Assembly (NCBI GenBank): GCA_016182015.1
Contig: JACOYC010000007.1
Location: 1-6,070, forward strand
Length of the DNA stretch: 6,070 nt
Direction of reading: 5' to 3'
Source of the DNA: Nanobdellati archaeon
GTDB lineage: Archaea > Nanobdellota > Nanobdellia > UBA10117
The notes under the pieces were generated by a model. That model was not told the origin of the DNA, searched no databases, and saw only the letters and a list, made by a program, of their open reading frames with translations. Below are positions 2,159-6,070 of this stretch, piece after piece. Position 1 is the first letter of the stretch, and each line of letters begins with the position of its first letter. The position numbers were made by a program, and so were the translations under genes.

Positions 2159-2175
2159 CTAATATGAAATATTAG
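2159..2175 (-). terminator. AT-rich hairpin just 3' of tRNA-Asp (possible 3' processing or termination element)
   Basis: CTAATAT-GAA-ATATTAG forms a perfect 7-bp inverted repeat abutting the tRNA-Asp discriminator base (2177). Confidence 0.3.
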
Positions 2176-2176
2176 G

Positions 2177-2461
2177 CGCCTGAGCCGAGATTCGAACTCG
2201 GGTCTGAACCGTTCTGCATGACAACCAAAGTACTTCAGCCGATCGCAGATCGGCTTGCCTTTTCTTTGGGTTGCCGACAAAATCCATTTTGGATTTTGCG
2301 GACACATCTGAACTTTGTTCAGATTGTGCCACGACACCTTTCTTTTTACGACGCAAGAAAAATCCGAAGATTTTTCTGCGCCCAGAAAATGCTTTGCATT
2401 TTCTTGGGAAAGAAAGGGGTTGTGTGACAGGGTTCTATCCTAACCGCTAGACTACTCAGGC
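2177..2461 (-). tRNA. tRNA-Asp (anticodon GUC), intron-containing
   Basis: Exons 2461-2425 and 2211-2177 join to 72 nt: GCCUGAG-UA-GUCU-AGCGGUUA-GGAU-A-GAACC-CUGUCAC-GGUUC-AGAC-CCGAG-UUCGAAU-CUCGG-CUCAGGC-G. Acceptor stem 7/7, T stem 5/5, anticodon stem 5/5; the D stem has two G.U pairs. The 3' trailer is CCU, so CCA is not fully encoded. Confidence 0.9.
2212..2424 (-). other. tRNA-Asp intron, 213 nt, canonical position 37/38
   Basis: C32UGU35 pairs with the intron 3' GCAG. The 3' bulge is AA|C38 and the 5' bulge is C36A37|C. An ACAACC/GGUUGU helix closes the intron, with an extra CAU opposite the 5' bulge, so the BHB is relaxed. The interior is filled with 6-13 bp hairpins and holds no plausible ORF. 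Confidence 0.8.
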
Positions 2462-2492: not shown

Positions 2493-2512
2493 GTTGAGTC
2501 CCGCCCTCAGGA

Positions 2513-2663
2513 TTTTCTTTATCATCCTTTTTCCTTAGCGCCATCGTAGATGGCGCACGGGGGAATCAGGGTGAGCGTCCCAATCGAACGAAGTTCGATG
2601 TGCGGCAAAATCCATTGGATTTTGATTGCAACCTGAAGGGGGCAGAGCCCCCTTCGGGTCCGT
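2513..2663 (-). other. tRNA-Tyr intron 2, ~151 nt, inside the T-loop (about 59/60)
   Basis: The T arm is split: UCAGG-UUCAAA ends at 2664 and U-CCUGA-GGGCGGG-A resumes at 2512. A-runs on both sides make the boundary ambiguous by up to ~4 nt. The interior has the hairpins GAAGGGGGC-TCT-GCCCCCTTC, CAAAATCC-AAT-GGATTTTG, ATCGAAC-TTC-GTTCGAT and GCGCCAT-CTACG-ATGGCGC. I could not draw a clean BHB by eye. Confidence 0.65.
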
Positions 2664-2685
2664 TTTGAACCTGAAACCTTCCGGG

Positions 2686-2723
2686 TTCTGAGCGCATATT
2701 GCTTGCCTAGCGGCAAGTGCTGT
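2686..2723 (-). other. tRNA-Tyr intron 1, 38 nt, at or near 37/38
   Basis: Sense sequence is ACAGCACTTGCCGCTAGGCAAGCAATATGCGCTCAGAA, with an internal hairpin CTTGCC-GCTA-GGCAAG. The 3' end UCAG pairs with C32UG (U35.U mismatch), followed by the bulge AA|C38. The boundary is ambiguous by +/-1 nt. Confidence 0.7.
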
Positions 2724-2783
2724 CTACAGCCAGACGCTCTACCAGGTTGAGCTAGGGCGGGATAGATAGTGCTGCATATTTGG

Positions 2784-2806: not shown

Positions 2807-4213
2807 TTATTCCTTCGTAGAAATCTTTCCAAGCACAGAAACAGTGTTGGATGCAACTGCCTTTGCCTTGCCGTTCTCTGTCTTGAATTTTACGTGCGCG
2901 GCAGGCAACCTAATCGCCCCAACAATACCAAGAGAGGTTCTCAAATCATAAGTCAAAACCCTTTCCTCGCCAGGATATAAAACATCAAACTTCCAGCTTA
3001 GCCTGATGTGCCCGCCTTCCTTCTTTATCACGCTCGGGTTCATTGTACCATAATCGCTGCCCGGTTTTAGCGGCGTGGCAATCACATCTGTAACAGTAAC
3101 GTTCGGCACCTGCTTGCCCGCCAGTGATTTTACAACAAGCTTAACCTTCAGGCTCTTTGGCCCTTTTATTACTGATTTCGTAATGCTAAACTCGGCGCCG
3201 TAATATTTTGATAATGTATAAACGCCGGCGATGAGTAATATTAAAACAACGGCCAGCCATGCGTAAGATATTGTGTAAGCCATGGTTGTGCTCTGGCCGG
3301 GAGAAAGCGAATACTGCCAGCCAGCCACAAATCCGCCGCTGTCACCGCTTAATTTCTCTGCTTCGGGTTTCGAAAAAAAGAACGCGCGCTGCCAAGACGG
3401 AAGCAAAACTGTATGTGTGCCAACCGCATCGATATTGCCTTTGTTTGTCAGCGTGATTGTATATTTTGTGCCGAGGAATGCTCCGGAAGTATCTGTTTTG
3501 GAAACCACATTTTCGGAAGACAAAACCTGAAACCGCTTGCTCTGCTGAGAAACAAGTTTGCCGGCCGAATAAATCGAAACCACATTCTTGTAGTTGCCTG
3601 GCTTTACGTCAGAGTCTATTGTTATGTCTTTCTGCAGAACCAGTTTGGCCTCGCCGGAGGCCAGCTTGCCAATTGTAAAGTCAACCGGCTGGAACAAATC
3701 GCTGCTCAACTTGCCTGTCAGGCCTGCCGCTTCATCCTTGCCGGAATTTTTAACGATCAGATTTATTTTGTAATCGCCAGGCTTTATCTTACTCTCCAAA
3801 TCTATTGAAGAATCAATATGCGGCGGTTCTGTGAGGACAGTTATCTTAACCAGCACCGATGTCTGCACTTTTGGGTTATTGCAGGCCTTTGCAGTCACTT
3901 CAATCGCGTAGGTGCCGGCATAAACATCTGCCGGCGGCGTGATTCTAAGTTCGGCAGATCTTGCGGAATTTGCAGGTATATCTAAAATATAATTATCAAA
4001 GTAGGCTGTCCCCCAGCCTGGCGCCGAAAGGCAGAATCTGTCGAACTTTGCCTGATTATTACCGACTGTAATGCCGTATTTTGCAGAATCTGTGTAAGAA
4101 ACAGCACCGACCACTGCATTTTGCGTCATAACAACATCAGAACCTGCATGCGCGATGGGCAAACCGAGAACAAGTAACAAAAGACTAATGATGATTATGT
4201 GTGGCCAGCGCAT
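2807..4213 (-). CDS. Secreted, membrane-anchored protein with CARDB/Ig-like beta-rich repeats
   Basis: The track ORF 2807..4222 starts at a TTG; the first ATG is at 4213-4211 (MRWPHIIIISLLLLVLGLPIAHA|GS), which reads as a classical signal peptide. Segments such as RITPPADVYAGTYAIEVTAKA, INLIVKNSGKDEAAGLTGKL and YTITLTNKGNIDAVG resemble CARDB/NEW3-type Ig-fold repeats. One TM helix lies at track residues ~316-337 (YTISYAWLAVVLILLIAGVYTL), followed by a K-rich segment and a ~125-aa C-terminal beta-rich domain. Confidence 0.85.
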   Translation of the reverse strand: MRWPHIIIISLLLLVLGLPIAHAGSDVVMTQNAVVGAVSYTDSAKYGITVGNNQAKFDRFCLSAPGWGTAYFDNYILDIPANSARSAELRITPPADVYAGTYAIEVTAKACNNPKVQTSVLVKITVLTEPPHIDSSIDLESKIKPGDYKINLIVKNSGKDEAAGLTGKLSSDLFQPVDFTIGKLASGEAKLVLQKDITIDSDVKPGNYKNVVSIYSAGKLVSQQSKRFQVLSSENVVSKTDTSGAFLGTKYTITLTNKGNIDAVGTHTVLLPSWQRAFFFSKPEAEKLSGDSGGFVAGWQYSLSPGQSTTMAYTISYAWLAVVLILLIAGVYTLSKYYGAEFSITKSVIKGPKSLKVKLVVKSLAGKQVPNVTVTDVIATPLKPGSDYGTMNPSVIKKEGGHIRLSWKFDVLYPGEERVLTYDLRTSLGIVGAIRLPAAHVKFKTENGKAKAVASNTVSVLGKISTKE

Positions 4214-4242
4214 GTTTATCAATTATGTTAGTGAATAATTAG

Positions 4243-4250
4243 TATATAAA
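4243..4250 (-). promoter_or_regulatory. TATA box of the surface-protein gene
   Basis: Sense TTTATATA lies 30-37 nt upstream of ATG 4213. This predicts a near-leaderless transcript starting around 4220. That argues against the TTG at 4222 as the start codon. Confidence 0.5.
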
Positions 4251-4307
4251 TGTTTCTAGATCGCATAATGAGCAATCCACAATGATATATGGTGAGGCTG
4301 CGCAGAT

Positions 4308-4464
4308 TTGTTCCGCACATCGGGATTTGCGGGATTGTTAAATCCCGCTGTTTTTCTTTTTGGGTTCCCAGGAGCCTTTTTCTTTCCAGAGCCGAATGAA
4401 ATTCGGCTTGGCCAAGAAAAATGCCGAAGCATTTTTCTCTGGTTTTAAAAGAAAAAGGGTGCTG
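4308..4464 (-). other. tRNA-Pro intron 2, ~157 nt, inside the T-loop (56-60)
   Basis: CGCAG-UUCAA ends at 4465 and AU-CUGCG-CAGCCUC-A-CCA resumes at 4307. Read without splicing, the local T-loop would be AACAAAU, which lacks U54 and U55. The exact boundary is ambiguous by ~2 nt. It contains the three-way-junction module at 4375-4458. Confidence 0.65.
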
Positions 4465-4484
4465 TTGAACTGCGGTCACACCCA

Positions 4485-4583
4485 TTCTGGTAAAGACATC
4501 TTTTGTGCGATTGAAAATCGCACTTTTCTTTCTTTAGACGCCCAGGAGCGTTTCTTTCTTTTTAAAAGAAAGAAAAGCTGCTG
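4485..4583 (-). other. tRNA-Pro intron 1, 99 nt, at or near 37/38
   Basis: The sense strand starts CAGCAGC and ends CCAGAA. CCAG pairs with U33GG35 (A32.G mismatch), followed by the bulge AA|U38. It contains CTTTTCTTTCTTT...AAAGAAAGAAAAG (+ 4523-4577) and the hairpin GTGCGATT-GAA-AATCGCAC (+ 4505-4523). The boundary is ambiguous by +/-1 nt. Confidence 0.65.
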
Positions 4584-4638
4584 CCCCATGGGCGTAGCCT
4601 ACCAAGCTAGCCGACAGCCCCGCTAAGAATTTATTTAT

Positions 4639-4663
4639 AGCTTTAAAAGTTCTTTTACTATTT
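4639..4663. repeat. 25-bp exact direct repeat, copy A (tRNA-Pro promoter region)
   Basis: AGCTTTAAAAGTTCTTTTACTATTT is identical to 4751-4775. Confidence 0.9.
4641..4648 (-). promoter_or_regulatory. Candidate TATA box of tRNA-Pro
   Basis: Sense TTTTAAAG lies 20-27 nt upstream of G1 (4621), slightly closer than for the other two tRNAs. It sits inside the 25-bp repeat that duplicates the adk 3' end. Confidence 0.4.
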
Positions 4664-4720
4664 GTACAGCCCCCTTTCTTTGGGAAAGAAAGGTGCTCTA
4701 CGAAACCACCAAAGAAACCT

Positions 4721-4739
4721 GTGCGATATTCTATCGCAC
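4721..4739 (-). terminator. Hairpin 8 nt downstream of the adk stop (terminator-like, or a cassette of the intron hairpin family)
   Basis: GTGCGATA-TTC-TATCGCAC has a perfect 8-bp stem. In the adk sense it is followed by AGGTTTCTTTGG. The same stem occurs in tRNA-Pro intron 1 (4505-4523). Confidence 0.4.
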
Positions 4740-4746
4740 TAAATTT

Positions 4747-5457
4747 TTACAGCTTTAAAAGTTCTTTTACTATTTTTTCAGCATCTGCTTTTACGCTACT
4801 AACGTCTTTTTCCGCATTGACTGGTCTAAACGCGGCGGAATATGTTCTGCGCATGCTTTCCACCATTGGCCATGTCTTCTTATCATACTCACGTATCGCA
4901 TTCGCAAACATGTCGTAATTAACATCTTCCTGCCTGATGTAAAGCCCGCCCCCGCAGGCATCACATCTGTCCGCAGTTTTTGGCGGAGAAAACTTAACAT
5001 GATAGACTAAACCGCATGGCCTGCAGCTCCTTCTTCCCTTGGCCCGCTCAAACAATGTATCGTCATTCGCAATGTCAAGGTAAAGCACTGCATCAAAATC
5101 AATCTCCCATTTCATATGTCCGTTCACGCGCTCGAACATCCTTTCGAGAAAATCCAGCTGTCCAGTAGTCCTTGGGTAGCCAACCCAAAAAGCAACCGAG
5201 CCCGGCTTCATTGCAAAAAATTGATGCTCGACAAGGGAATTCATGTACGGATCCGGAGTAAGGCTTCTGTCTGCATCAAAATGCTCTGCGACTTTTCCAA
5301 GCAAAGTCCCGTCGCGCTTGCCTGCCCGCAGCAAATTTCCGGTTGCGATATGCTGCGAGTCCGGTATTTGTTTGAGTAAGTGCTGCAGAACAGTGTCTTT
5401 GCCCGAGTAAACAGCGCCAATTATAACCACATTCTTAACTGGTTTAAGTTCAGCCAC
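4747..5457 (-). CDS. adk: Adenylate kinase, long form with a four-Cys zinc LID
   Basis: Motifs: GAVYSGKDT (P-loop; compare GxPGxGKGT), HIATGNLLRA (compare IStGdlLRa), GYPRTTGQ (compare GfPRTxxQ), LID GRRSCRPCGLVYHVKFSPPKTADRCDACGGGLYIRQEDV (CxxC...CxxC), and IREYDKKTWPMV. The start is GTG at 5457; the next in-frame Met is residue 72, after the P-loop. GAGGT (+ 5463-5467) lies 5 nt upstream. Confidence 0.9.
   Translation of the reverse strand: MAELKPVKNVVIIGAVYSGKDTVLQHLLKQIPDSQHIATGNLLRAGKRDGTLLGKVAEHFDADRSLTPDPYMNSLVEHQFFAMKPGSVAFWVGYPRTTGQLDFLERMFERVNGHMKWEIDFDAVLYLDIANDDTLFERAKGRRSCRPCGLVYHVKFSPPKTADRCDACGGGLYIRQEDVNYDMFANAIREYDKKTWPMVESMRRTYSAAFRPVNAEKDVSSVKADAEKIVKELLKL
4751..4775. repeat. 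25-bp exact direct repeat, copy B (last codons of adk)
   Basis: AGCTTTAAAAGTTCTTTTACTATTT is identical to 4639-4663. Here it encodes the adk C-terminus (...KIVKELLKL). Confidence 0.9.
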
Positions 5458-5489
5458 AGCTTACCTCTAAAAGCAGATAAAACAGTGAC

Positions 5490-5499
5490 TATAAAAAAA
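5490..5499 (-). promoter_or_regulatory. Candidate TATA box / T-run between the kinase gene and adk
   Basis: Sense TTTTTTTATA lies 33-42 nt upstream of the adk GTG and 14 nt downstream of the TAG (5515-5513) of the upstream gene. Confidence 0.45.
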
Positions 5500-5512
5500 T
5501 ATCTGTGCAAAA

Positions 5513-6070
5513 CTAAACGAATTTCCCAACTAAAACATCAATCTTGGAATAAAGCTGCATAAGCGAGCCAGATGCATCAATCACATAATCTGCCTGCGCG
5601 AAAACCCTTTTCAGATGAAACTCTTTTTCCTCCCTTTTTTCTAGAGCGAGGAACTCTGGCCAGTAGGCTGGATCTCCCGGCCGGCCGCGCTTCTTCATCC
5701 GCTCAAAACGAATTTTTGCGGGCGCAGTCACAAATACTAGTTTTGCCTTGTGCTTAAAATATTTTTTAACAACTTTTACATCGGATGCCAAGCGTATGCC
5801 ATCAATGCAAACCTTTTCGTCGCCATCATTCTCTACTTTCTGAATTATCTTTCTTATAAAATAATTTGTCCCGTACTTATTTCTCAGCCGCTCGGAAAGT
5901 TTTTCCAGATTCTTGCGGTTGGAGCGTATGCGCCTTTTTCTTGCCTCAGAGCGGATGTAGTCAGAAACTGTGTGCTTGTGAAATTTATATTTTTTTTCCA
6001 AATATTCGGCAACAGTCCCCTTGCCAGCCCCGATATCTCCAACTAAACCTATGACTGTGCGGATGGCCAT
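5513..6070 (-). CDS. P-loop nucleotide/nucleoside-kinase-like protein (dephospho-CoA-kinase / archaeal UPF0200-like)
   Basis: 185 aa. The ATG falls exactly at the window edge (6070-6068). A Walker A motif, GLVGDIGAGKGTVAEYL, sits at residues 8-24. VCIDGIRLASDV resembles the xIDGvRsxxEv segment of small archaeal NMP-kinase-fold proteins. The P-loop lying so close to the N-terminus supports this ATG as the true start. The specific substrate is not assignable by eye. Confidence 0.8.
   Translation of the reverse strand: MAIRTVIGLVGDIGAGKGTVAEYLEKKYKFHKHTVSDYIRSEARKRRIRSNRKNLEKLSERLRNKYGTNYFIRKIIQKVENDGDEKVCIDGIRLASDVKVVKKYFKHKAKLVFVTAPAKIRFERMKKRGRPGDPAYWPEFLALEKREEKEFHLKRVFAQADYVIDASGSLMQLYSKIDVLVGKFV

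Follow-up and report, generated by a model that had tools for sequence, protein, structure and literature searches.

It is not settled how archaeal tRNA genes come to acquire introns, and the transposition of introns between tRNA genes of the Thermoproteales has been inferred without a mechanism. We approach it here from a 6,070-nt stretch of DNA of a Nanobdellati archaeon (contig JACOYC010000007.1), called the window throughout, in which a three-way-junction element fills part of an intron in the T-loop of a tRNA-Pro gene and an element of the same architecture occurs in the anticodon-loop intron of a tRNA-Asp gene. What is this element, and how did it come to lie in two tRNAs at two positions? 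The intron that holds the tRNA-Pro element is one of a family of large, structured introns found at the D-loop, 37/38 and T-loop sites of many tRNAs. Members of this family are built of two nested units, a conserved "rod" and an optional two-hairpin "cassette" at the tip of the rod, and in tRNA-Pro the cassette is reversed. We think it likely that the cassette is a selfish or neutral passenger at the tip of the T-loop tRNA-Pro intron which spreads at the DNA level.

On the minus strand, the RNA-sense strand of tRNA-Pro, both the minimum free energy (MFE) fold and the centroid fold of positions 4375-4458 are a three-way junction, which starts 6 nt inside the 5' end of the 157-nt intron and forms its apical part (Table 1). 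An 11-bp pyrimidine-purine helix, P1, pairs CCTTTTTCTTT (4375-4385) with AAAGAAAAAGG (4448-4458) and closes a linker and two hairpins, Hd and Hc, with one bulged base apiece. The predicted energy is -37.0 kcal/mol (z = -6.47) and none of 200 dinucleotide shuffles was as good. The plus strand gave the same three-way junction (z = -6.46, 0/200 shuffles), as did the minus strand of the Asp module at 2336-2417 (z = -6.33, 0/200). Whole introns of the window were more structured than shuffles (z from -4.4 to -8.5), the exception being the 38-nt tRNA-Tyr 37/38 intron (z = -0.94); for the Pro T-loop intron alone z was -6.0, with a GCAC-GUGC pairing as its terminal helix. The coordinates and sequences that a first-pass annotation had given for the Pro arms, hairpins and single bulges proved exact, and its placement of one architecture in a Pro T-loop and an Asp anticodon loop was borne out by exon reconstruction and folding. 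Direct identity between the Pro and Asp modules is only about 64-67%, whichever orientation is compared.

All three tRNA genes of the window (Pro, Asp and Tyr) lie on the minus strand and are interrupted by large inserts. Neither ARAGORN nor Rfam at E <= 1 reported a tRNA in the raw window, because introns of 38-213 nt hide these genes from ARAGORN and from the Rfam tRNA model. We decoded the exons by hand and confirmed them with ARAGORN on the spliced sequences, which it called as tRNA-Pro(GGG), tRNA-Asp(GTC) and tRNA-Tyr(GTA) once the introns had been removed in silico. Removal of the inserts from tRNA-Pro restores a canonical cloverleaf with the acceptor stem GGGGCTG/CAGCCTC, discriminator A73 and a CCA encoded in the gene (4290-4292). 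Its exons are near-identical in the orthologues L029 and L044 (L-numbers denote loci of related genomes or metagenome contigs compared with the window). A three-intron model of tRNA-Pro, with GGGCG (4543-4539) as the 3' strand of the anticodon stem and an extra variable-loop intron, was rejected. We chose GGGTG (4483-4479) because it yields the 3' bulge AA^Y (^ marks the cut), as in Asp and Tyr, and because it matches the L044 tRNA-Pro, which has no anticodon intron and reads ATGGGG-T-GGGCAAGAC. As to the 3' ends of the other two genes, tRNA-Asp encodes CC only (2175-2176) and tRNA-Tyr encodes no 3' CCA residues.

The Pro module locus has only short, overlapping open reading frames (ORFs) on both strands and no homing-endonuclease ORF; two spurious ORFs of 85 and 88 aa overlap tRNA-Pro (4228-4485 minus; 4360-4626 plus). 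The window as a whole contains no endonuclease gene. Rfam at E <= 1 gave one spurious match to an internal ribosome entry site and no group I or group II self-splicing intron in the window. The contig is present in runs SRR12113383, SRR12113384 and SRR12113420. Independent Logan assemblies of three sequencing runs reproduced 4393-6070 at 100% identity, and the independent assembly L003 confirmed 4393-4458 and the exon junction at 100%.

All family introns share flanks that lie outside the coordinates of the first-pass annotation. On the 5' side, C(A/G)GCA(G/C/T)C begins at the splice site and leads into the pyrimidine arm of P1; on the 3' side, the purine arm gives way to (C)GCTCCYGGG, and then to a short spacer, another purine tract (AAAGAAAGA) and one more hairpin. 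We call the conserved flanks (CAGCAGC / GCTCCYGGG) together with P1 the rod. Many family introns are rod-only, P1 being closed by a simple loop of 3-7 nt; among them are the anticodon-loop introns of window Pro, L029 Pro, L009 Ser and L006 His, the T-loop introns of L029 Asp and L044 Pro and the T-arm intron of L006 His. Such introns show that the two hairpins are optional and are inserted at the apical loop. Empty loops read GTTGCAA (L044) and TTTGCG (L010), whereas filled ones read ..CT[cassette]TTGCG... In the cassette one bulged hairpin unit is present twice, as an inverted pair, on the scaffold [CCAGAG-X-CTTGG][CCAAG-Y-CTCTGG], or CCC/CGC variants of it, and the upper stems X and Y are exchangeable, at least five types occurring in differing combinations. 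Each hairpin has a 3-bp base, a one-base bulge, an upper stem of 9-10 bp and a tri- or tetraloop. A reading of the rod as a nested bulge-helix-bulge (BHB) intron was rejected; CAG-C-AGC / GCT-C-CTG has only a C-C mismatch, without 3-nt bulges.

The Asp intron carries more hairpins downstream of its cassette (2212-2336), namely ATCTGAAC-AAA-GTTCAGAT, CAAAATCCA-AAA-TGGATTTTG and AGCCGATC-TGC-GATCGGCT. The first is also found in L034 (~1380-1435) and L043 (~3380-3432), where it likewise separates GGGAAC from the purine tract, and a hairpin of the CAAAATCCA type is also found in the Tyr T-loop intron. Hairpins thus accumulate at several intron sites and not at the rod tip alone.

Copies were collected with the pattern AGAAAAAT(N)CTTCGG(N)ATTTTTCT, which is common to one hairpin per module and is not expected by chance in the window as judged by shuffles. 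It matched 20 loci in 185,579 species genomes, 8 of them from metagenome-assembled genomes (MAGs) of Woesearchaeota/Nanoarchaeota, and 32 loci in JGI/ENA metagenomes, about a dozen of them from the metagenome pair Ga0209541/Ga0209542. At the archaeal loci the hairpin lay almost always within the same architecture in a tRNA gene; the other matches were ordinary bacterial hairpins or lay in coding regions. This gave at least 17 non-redundant introns with rod and cassette. They come from five or more genomes or metagenomes and occupy three kinds of tRNA position: the D-loop (L006 His, L011, L013), the 37/38 site (window Asp, L024 Ile, L010 and L034 Leu, L039 His, L044 Gly, L056 Cys, L058 Trp, L043, L045) and the T-loop (window Pro, L029 Pro, L009 Ser, L053). 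Hosts were verified by in-silico splicing for window Pro, Asp and Tyr, L029 Pro and Asp, L044 Pro and L009 Ser, and the remaining identities were read off flanking exon sequence.

The first-pass annotation had proposed that the module moves independently of host tRNA and splice site. Its mobility is supported by near-identical modules in D-loop, anticodon-loop and T-loop introns of other tRNAs in other genomes; what did not stand is the idea of a single unit, there being two nested mobile ones, the rod with its flanks and the cassette. The Asp module is identical at 77/83 positions to the D-loop copy of L011, at 77/84 to the 37/38 copy in L024 Ile (92-93% for these two) and at 72/81 to the T-loop copy in L009 Ser, and one and the same module occurs in L006 and L013 although the host tRNAs differ. 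The 3' flank of the rod was found, by regular expression or hidden Markov model (HMM), in at least 20 sense-strand copies in related loci at D-loop, 37/38 and T-loop sites. Viral contigs scanned with the hairpin, flank and junction patterns gave nothing, or three chance matches within coding regions. A single tRNA-His gene of L006 (6630-7130) contains three family introns, with a cassette in the D-loop intron and rod only at 37/38 and in the T-arm; the putative T-arm junction reads TCCGATT^CAGCAGCC ... TCGAAAAT.

In 16 copies the order in tRNA sense is P1, hairpin 1, hairpin 2, a linker of 4-7 nt and P1'. The window Pro T-loop intron has the linker first and the hairpins in the opposite order, and relative to their host tRNAs the Pro and Asp modules are mirror images, with the linker 5' of the hairpins in Pro and 3' in Asp. 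We built a profile HMM of the cassette from 11 copies of other genomes, all in tRNA sense and with the window excluded, and searched it with nhmmer. The match to the Pro cassette was full-length on the plus strand (4386-4444, 53.1 bits, E = 1.3e-16), with only a one-hairpin match on the minus strand (25.1 bits), and the match to the Asp cassette was full-length on the minus strand (2408-2349, 51.7 bits, E = 3.6e-16). The best blastn segment against the orthologous L029 tRNA-Pro precursor likewise joins 4443-4383 to L029 274-214 in opposite orientation, with 91.8% identity over 61 nt (E = 2.6e-20), while the tRNA-Pro exons and flanks of the window and L029 are collinear and the rod flanks of Pro (CAGCAC and CTCCTGGG) are in sense orientation. 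With its interior flipped in silico the Pro module aligns without gaps to the L029/L010/L056 group; unflipped, it needs long gaps. The reversal could be either an in-place inversion between the 11-bp P1 arms or entry of the cassette into a symmetric rod on the other DNA strand. In L053 the orientation of the T-loop cassette is ambiguous.

The reversal also changes which hairpins correspond. The first-pass annotation had matched the Pro hairpin at 4412-4442 to Asp 2381-2408, but in the HMM alignment its positional counterpart is Asp 2349-2380; the earlier assignment fails because both modules were compared on the plus strand while the Pro cassette is reversed relative to its tRNA. All hairpins of the Pro and Asp cassettes are paralogues of one hairpin family.

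Orthologous loci record several states of the same site: introns of tRNA-Pro and tRNA-Asp differ in presence, position and content, and exons in other genomes are intact while the introns differ. This comparison, which the first-pass annotation had suggested, speaks for mobility. The tRNA-Pro(GGG) gene of L004, which lies 22 nt after the stop codon of a 75% identical adenylate kinase gene (adk), has an anticodon-loop intron of ~14 nt and a T-loop intron of 41 nt without a rod, which holds an Hd-like fragment. L044 has no anticodon-loop intron and a rod-only T-loop intron of 106 nt. L029 has a rod-only anticodon-loop intron of 108 nt and a T-loop intron of 160 nt with rod and cassette in standard orientation, and the window has a rod-only anticodon-loop intron of 99 nt and a T-loop intron of 157 nt with rod and reversed cassette. 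The mature Pro T-loop, TTCAAAT, is the same in all four. The tRNA-Asp(GTC) of L029 has a 27-nt intron in the anticodon stem, a rod-only T-loop intron and nothing at 37/38, where the window has its family intron. The adk-based search of species genomes found no relatives, and the search for adk homologues gave only two close ones.

Comparison of interiors and ends shows that these introns are mosaic. The body of the window Pro T-loop intron is 87% identical (84/97) to the anticodon-loop intron of L029 Pro, against which the cassette stands out as a clean insertion in the apical loop; 4326-4385, comprising the P1 3' arm and the rod 3' flank, is 90% identical over 60 nt. At its 3' end (GTGCGGAAYAA) the window intron is instead similar to the T-loop intron of L044. 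This split similarity indicates mosaics with site-specific ends and exchangeable interiors. The window Pro 37/38 intron is homologous to the anticodon-loop introns of L029 Pro and L009 Ser.

Conservation of the fold was assessed on a 17-sequence alignment (A2), as the first-pass annotation had also suggested. RNAalifold recovered both hairpins, with 21 pairs of which 7 changed on both sides and none was broken. Standard pairing was present in 357 of 357 hairpin cells (100%) against a mean of 87.3% in shuffles, and 42 cells were changed on both sides against 15.6; no shuffle out of 500 reached either value. When hairpin partners were slid by 1-3 columns, pairing fell to 37-60%. The double-sided changes do not amount to that many independent events, because the variation consists in large part of exchanges between entire hairpin types. 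P1 was checked copy by copy because its unequal arm lengths misalign in the MAFFT alignment. The claim that the closing helix differs by compensated changes held: P1 is a perfect helix (Watson-Crick or G-U) of 7-13 bp in 15 of the 17 copies, with arms as diverse as CCTTTCTTT, CCTTTTTCTTT, TTTCTCT, TTTCTTTCTT, GCCTTTTTT and others. L034 and L045 have only 1 bp when no interruption is allowed, and by eye about 8 bp with one unpaired base or mismatch.

Archaeal BHB introns have a central helix of 4 bp flanked by 3-nt bulges that are cut after the second base. We infer that the Pro T-loop intron is of this protein-spliced type with a relaxed motif; its exact splice sites, BHB pairing and splicing, like the DNA-level mechanism proposed below, are predictions from sequence. 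BHB geometry would put the intron at 58/59, and a CAA repeat at both junctions permits sites from 55/56 to 58/59 with the same product. The proposed 3' strand of the central helix, GAAC, would pair perfectly with G53-U-U-C56 (4470-4467), the proposed bulges being A4466 A4465^C4464 and A4309 A4308^A4307. The proposed h' helix, GCAC (4462-4459) with GUGC (4318-4315), is paired in the intron MFE and would stack directly on P1.

The 37/38 introns of Asp, Tyr and Pro end with GCAG, TCAG and CCAG, then AA^Y, which fits canonical geometry with a central helix (H) of 3-4 bp. Each tetranucleotide would pair with positions 32-35, which read C32-U33-G34-N35 in Asp and Tyr and A32-U33-G34-G35 in Pro (3/4 pairs). 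The L029 Pro T-loop intron fits 59/60 with H = UUCA/AGAA, which is also the H of the window Tyr and L009 Ser T-loop introns. In the scheme we propose, every family intron would finish in four bases able to pair with the four exon bases that lie 2 nt upstream of the 5' splice site, and the precursor could thereby present a relaxed BHB to the splicing endonuclease. In this model the rod probably supplies a rigid helix adjoining the 5' cut, and the cassette, ~15 bp away, is probably dispensable.

What, then, does the cassette do, and on which level does it move? The helices of the family are essentially Watson-Crick palindromes with no folding advantage on the sense strand: over 11 family introns total folding was -511.5 kcal/mol for sense and -533.2 kcal/mol for antisense, with 16 and 33 G-U pairs, respectively. 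Hairpins of the cassette type, single or paired, also occur in intergenic DNA (L008 ~1490-1550, L030 ~8890-8960, L053 ~10590-10640) in a survey that covered ~8 kb around each pattern match. The window, too, has a degenerate rod copy, with P1 CCTTTCTTT/AAAGAAAGG, in the spacer that separates the adk stop codon from the tRNA-Pro promoter; it runs antisense to both genes, and its local alignment to the Pro anticodon-loop intron gave z = 10.4 in antisense and 3.0 in sense. This copy is bracketed by a 37-nt direct repeat, copy 1 of which holds the last adk codons and copy 2 of which lies just upstream of tRNA-Pro. The adk-tRNA-Pro spacer of L004 is without this duplication. The repeat may represent a target duplication of unusual length, or else a duplication by which two overlapping functions were rescued. 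Strand-symmetric folding, intergenic hairpins and the antisense rod copy with its repeat together favour spread and rearrangement at the DNA level, and since folding is not biased to the sense strand and the cassette seems to work whichever way it lies, we read it as a passenger. It would propagate and rearrange by insertion, by recombination or gene conversion between intron copies and by inversion across its palindromic arms, sitting as an optional part in the apical loop of the rod and exchanging hairpin variants, and it would be tolerated because splicing removes the entire intron from the pre-tRNA. As a separate observation, intergenic regions of related DPANN contigs (L030 ~8800-9010, L008 ~1470-1590 and L053 ~10580-10670) hold arrays of short perfect hairpins, including CCAGAG...CTTGG units, which are reminiscent of bacterial clusters of repetitive extragenic palindromic (REP) sequences.

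A number of observations weigh against such a passenger, and several of them would suit a functional RNA module, that is, a three-way junction which holds the splice sites in register, binds a protein or stabilises an excised circular intron with a role of its own. Hairpin pairing is complete and compensated changes are present, the latter largely reflecting swaps of hairpin types rather than many independent substitutions; the architecture of base, bulge, stem and loop is conserved, and the bulge, at a distance of three pairs from the base of each hairpin, may be a recognition mark. In tRNA sense the tetraloop of Hc is TTCG in nearly all copies, the reversed Pro copy and either hairpin position included, which hints at selection at the RNA level or at frequent loop conversion. 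The rod directly adjoins the 5' splice site. In the proposed Pro T-loop BHB the outer helix is interrupted by two extra unpaired nucleotides, and the MFE fold of the whole precursor is without the proposed central helix, the intron 3' end GUGCGGA pairing with the T-stem 3' strand instead. No target-site duplication was seen at tRNA sites when the empty sites of L044 and L029 were compared with filled ones, no antisense or intergenic rod copy beyond that at 4664-4745 was found with a short 3'-flank HMM in 19 related loci, and no transposase or recombinase is linked to the intron family, no search aimed at such genes having been made. Nevertheless, we consider an RNA function of the junction unlikely. 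The cassette is missing from the L044 Pro T-loop, window Pro anticodon-loop and L029 Asp T-loop introns, which must still be spliced, and in window Pro it is present in reverse; hairpin types are interchangeable, and the loop of L009 is CGAA in the sense strand. The lack of a sense-strand folding or G-U bias, the same-type hairpins in intergenic DNA and the absence of an Rfam match and of a C box point in the same direction.

Spread of the cassette as DNA could also be tied to a particular enzyme. The cassette, and perhaps the whole rod, might be a non-autonomous transposon of REP type or of the related bacterial interspersed mosaic element (BIME) type, or a miniature inverted-repeat transposable element (MITE), moved in trans by, for example, an IS200/IS605-like or RAYT-like transposase that would act on single-stranded hairpins, with tRNA introns as mere safe harbours. 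This overlaps with the passenger proposed here and adds to it an enzymatic mechanism. It would account for the inverted pair of one bulged unit (CCAGAG..CTTGG then CCAAG..CTCTGG), for the position of the cassette immediately 3' of the pyrimidine arm on the standard-order strand in both orientations, for empty and filled apical loops (L044, L010) that point to insertion without duplication, and for the intergenic copies and the antisense rod copy between direct repeats. However, no transposase gene was found, none having been searched for, the 30-37-nt repeat far exceeds the usual length of target duplications, and recombination among paralogous introns accounts for the mosaics equally well. 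We consider this enzymatic version unlikely, too. It is very improbable, and largely refuted, that the Pro-Asp resemblance is chance similarity of purine/pyrimidine tracts or that the tRNA genes are dead pseudogenes disrupted by insertions. The helices are indeed A/T-rich and purine/pyrimidine-rich, identity of the two modules is low, and neither ARAGORN nor Rfam recognises a tRNA in the unspliced window. Against this, a model built without the window matches both modules full-length with E ~1e-16, which excludes low-complexity similarity alone, the shared hairpin pattern is expected zero times in shuffles, and the three genes splice to perfect cloverleaves, with orthologue exons intact despite differing introns. 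A DNA-level passenger in the rod tip remains the reading we prefer.

The phenomenon in the window is the DPANN counterpart of intron transposition in the Thermoproteales. In that group, as summarised in PMC4090602, BHB tRNA introns have undergone large-scale transposition between tRNA sites, with gain and loss between close relatives (Fujishima et al. 2010), and the mechanism of archaeal intron transposition is presumed to act at the DNA level. Common to both are similar intron sequences in different tRNAs and positions, and gain, loss or change of position at orthologous genes. Unlike the Thermoproteales type, the window comes from a DPANN/Woesearchaeota-like lineage and not from Crenarchaeota, its family introns measure 99-213 nt, and they have a conserved 5' rod, a separable and invertible two-hairpin cassette, and rod-only, filled and flipped states at one orthologous site. 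For DPANN lineages, the portions of the literature considered here report more tRNA gene disruption and incomplete tRNA sets (PMC5829648), and non-canonical, multiple tRNA introns processed by broad-specificity endonucleases in ARMAN and other DPANN (PMC3239211; PMC5829648). With those introns the present ones share a DPANN host, positions outside 37/38, a relaxed BHB and tRNA genes missed by standard predictors, but the same portions survey intron positions and enzyme types, unlike the repeated family with a cassette found here. A full-text literature search, with much subscription literature outside it, gave no description of the intron family, rod or cassette.

Other genetic systems offer partial parallels. 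Bacterial REP sequences, BIMEs and REP doublets forming hairpins (REPINs), as well as MITEs, are short imperfect bulged palindromes, often as inverted pairs, that occur as many repeats in either orientation, fold strand-symmetrically and are nested in non-coding DNA. The window cassette is similarly a short inverted-repeat element with strand-symmetric folding, found in both orientations relative to host transcription, but it is archaeal, lies mostly in spliced tRNA introns and has no clear target duplication at tRNA sites. The euryarchaeal tRNA-Trp intron is large, structured and bears a box C/D small RNA (sRNA). The family introns resemble it as large structured tRNA introns whose excised RNA could function, but their cassette is dispensable and reversible and no C box was seen in any window intron; the sole RTGATGA (4188-4194, plus) is in a coding region, and Rfam gave no small nucleolar RNA (snoRNA) match. 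At its 3' end the Tyr T-loop intron has GGATGATAAAG...CTGA, but a box C/D reading of this stretch was rejected for want of a consensus C box. Plastid non-coding DNA shows small inversions of hairpin loops or of segments bounded by inverted repeats, with no other change. These are like the reversed cassette between 11-bp P1 arms and the TTCG/CGAA loop flips, but belong to another genetic system, and the flip here lies within a transcribed intron that is predicted to be spliced.

New here are the conserved rod, the nested, optional and invertible palindromic cassette, the full series of states at one site and a copy that lies in no tRNA. No new principle is involved, but as a natural experiment on intron gain the family is unusually informative. 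One recognisable family with empty, rod-only, filled and flipped sites, mosaics within genes and a copy outside tRNA makes DNA-level and RNA-level models directly testable. It is a possible though doubtful extension that introns and cassettes together are archaeal non-autonomous DNA transposons, REP/BIME- or MITE-like, which survive in tRNA genes through their own splice-compatible ends. If so, some archaeal tRNA introns would originate as mobile DNA and not as RNA-level insertions or ancient relics, and the rod-only, filled and flipped series with the spacer copy and its long repeat would record the insertion mechanism. The invisibility of such genes to ARAGORN and Rfam also helps to explain the incomplete tRNA sets reported in DPANN genomes. 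Annotation pipelines miss or mis-annotate these loci, and the missed tRNA genes bias inferences on genome completeness and codon usage for such MAGs.

Table 1. Coordinates of the tRNA genes, introns, intron parts and neighbouring features in the window, with strand and remarks.
Feature	Positions	Strand	Remarks
tRNA-Pro(GGG) gene	4290-4621	-	exons 4621-4584, 4484-4465, 4307-4290; ARAGORN call on spliced sequence
tRNA-Pro T-loop intron	4308-4464	-	157 nt; exon reconstruction
Intron 5' end CAGCAC	4459-4464	-	begins at 5' splice site; family consensus CAGCAGC; family alignment
Three-way junction (module)	4375-4458	-	MFE and centroid fold; P1 closes linker and two bulged hairpins
Two-hairpin cassette with linker	4386-4447	+	standard family order on plus strand, reversed relative to tRNA-Pro
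Hairpin Hd	4386-4411	+	loop GAA
Hairpin Hc	4412-4442	+	second cassette hairpin
Linker TTTTA	4443-4447	+	5 nt
Rod 3' flank	4326-4374	-	CTCCTGGGAACCCAAAAAGAAAAAC and hairpin GCGGGATTTAACAATCCCGC
Proposed BHB central helix, 3' strand GAAC	4310-4313	-	predicted from sequence
tRNA-Pro anticodon-loop (37/38) intron	4485-4583	-	99 nt; rod only, P1 4551-4575 closed by simple loop, no cassette
Degenerate rod copy	4664-4745	+	P1, purine tract, GTGCGAT hairpin
Direct repeat	4746-4782 (copy 1), 4634-4670 (copy 2)		37 nt, 92%; 30-nt core 29/30; repeat search
adk (adenylate kinase)	4747-5457	-	protein identical to NCBI protein of "DPANN group archaeon" MAG
tRNA-Asp(GTC) gene	2175-2461	-	exons 2461-2425, 2211-2175; ARAGORN call after in-silico intron removal
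tRNA-Asp intron	2212-2424	-	sole intron, 213 nt, at 37/38
Asp rod and cassette	2337-2417	-	hairpins 2381-2408 and 2349-2380, linker 3' of both
tRNA-Tyr(GTA) gene	2499-2761	-	exons 2761-2724, 2685-2664, 2512-2499; ARAGORN call after intron removal
tRNA-Tyr 37/38 intron	2686-2723	-	38 nt, begins ACAGCAC
tRNA-Tyr T-loop intron	2513-2663	-	151 nt

Some further observations concern repeats of exon and intron ends. The 3' end of the Pro T-loop intron (4308-4320, GUGCGGAACAA) resembles the 5' half of the T-arm (CCGCAGUUCAA), and in the fold of the whole precursor it forms a pseudo T-arm with the T-stem 3' strand (4297-4306); L044 has the same intron end. There is a parallel in tRNA-Tyr, where TTCAGGTT is present in the exon (plus-strand 2668-2675) and again within the T-loop intron (2630-2637). 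The 16-nt sequence AATATGCGC[A/T]CAGAAC occurs twice, at 2685-2700, the 3' end of the Tyr 37/38 intron, and at 2793-2808, ~30 nt upstream of tRNA-Tyr at the stop codon of a 471-aa ORF. CAGCACT, the 5' end of the same intron (2716-2722), is repeated upstream at 2775-2781, and both intron ends are thus present upstream of the gene in permuted order.

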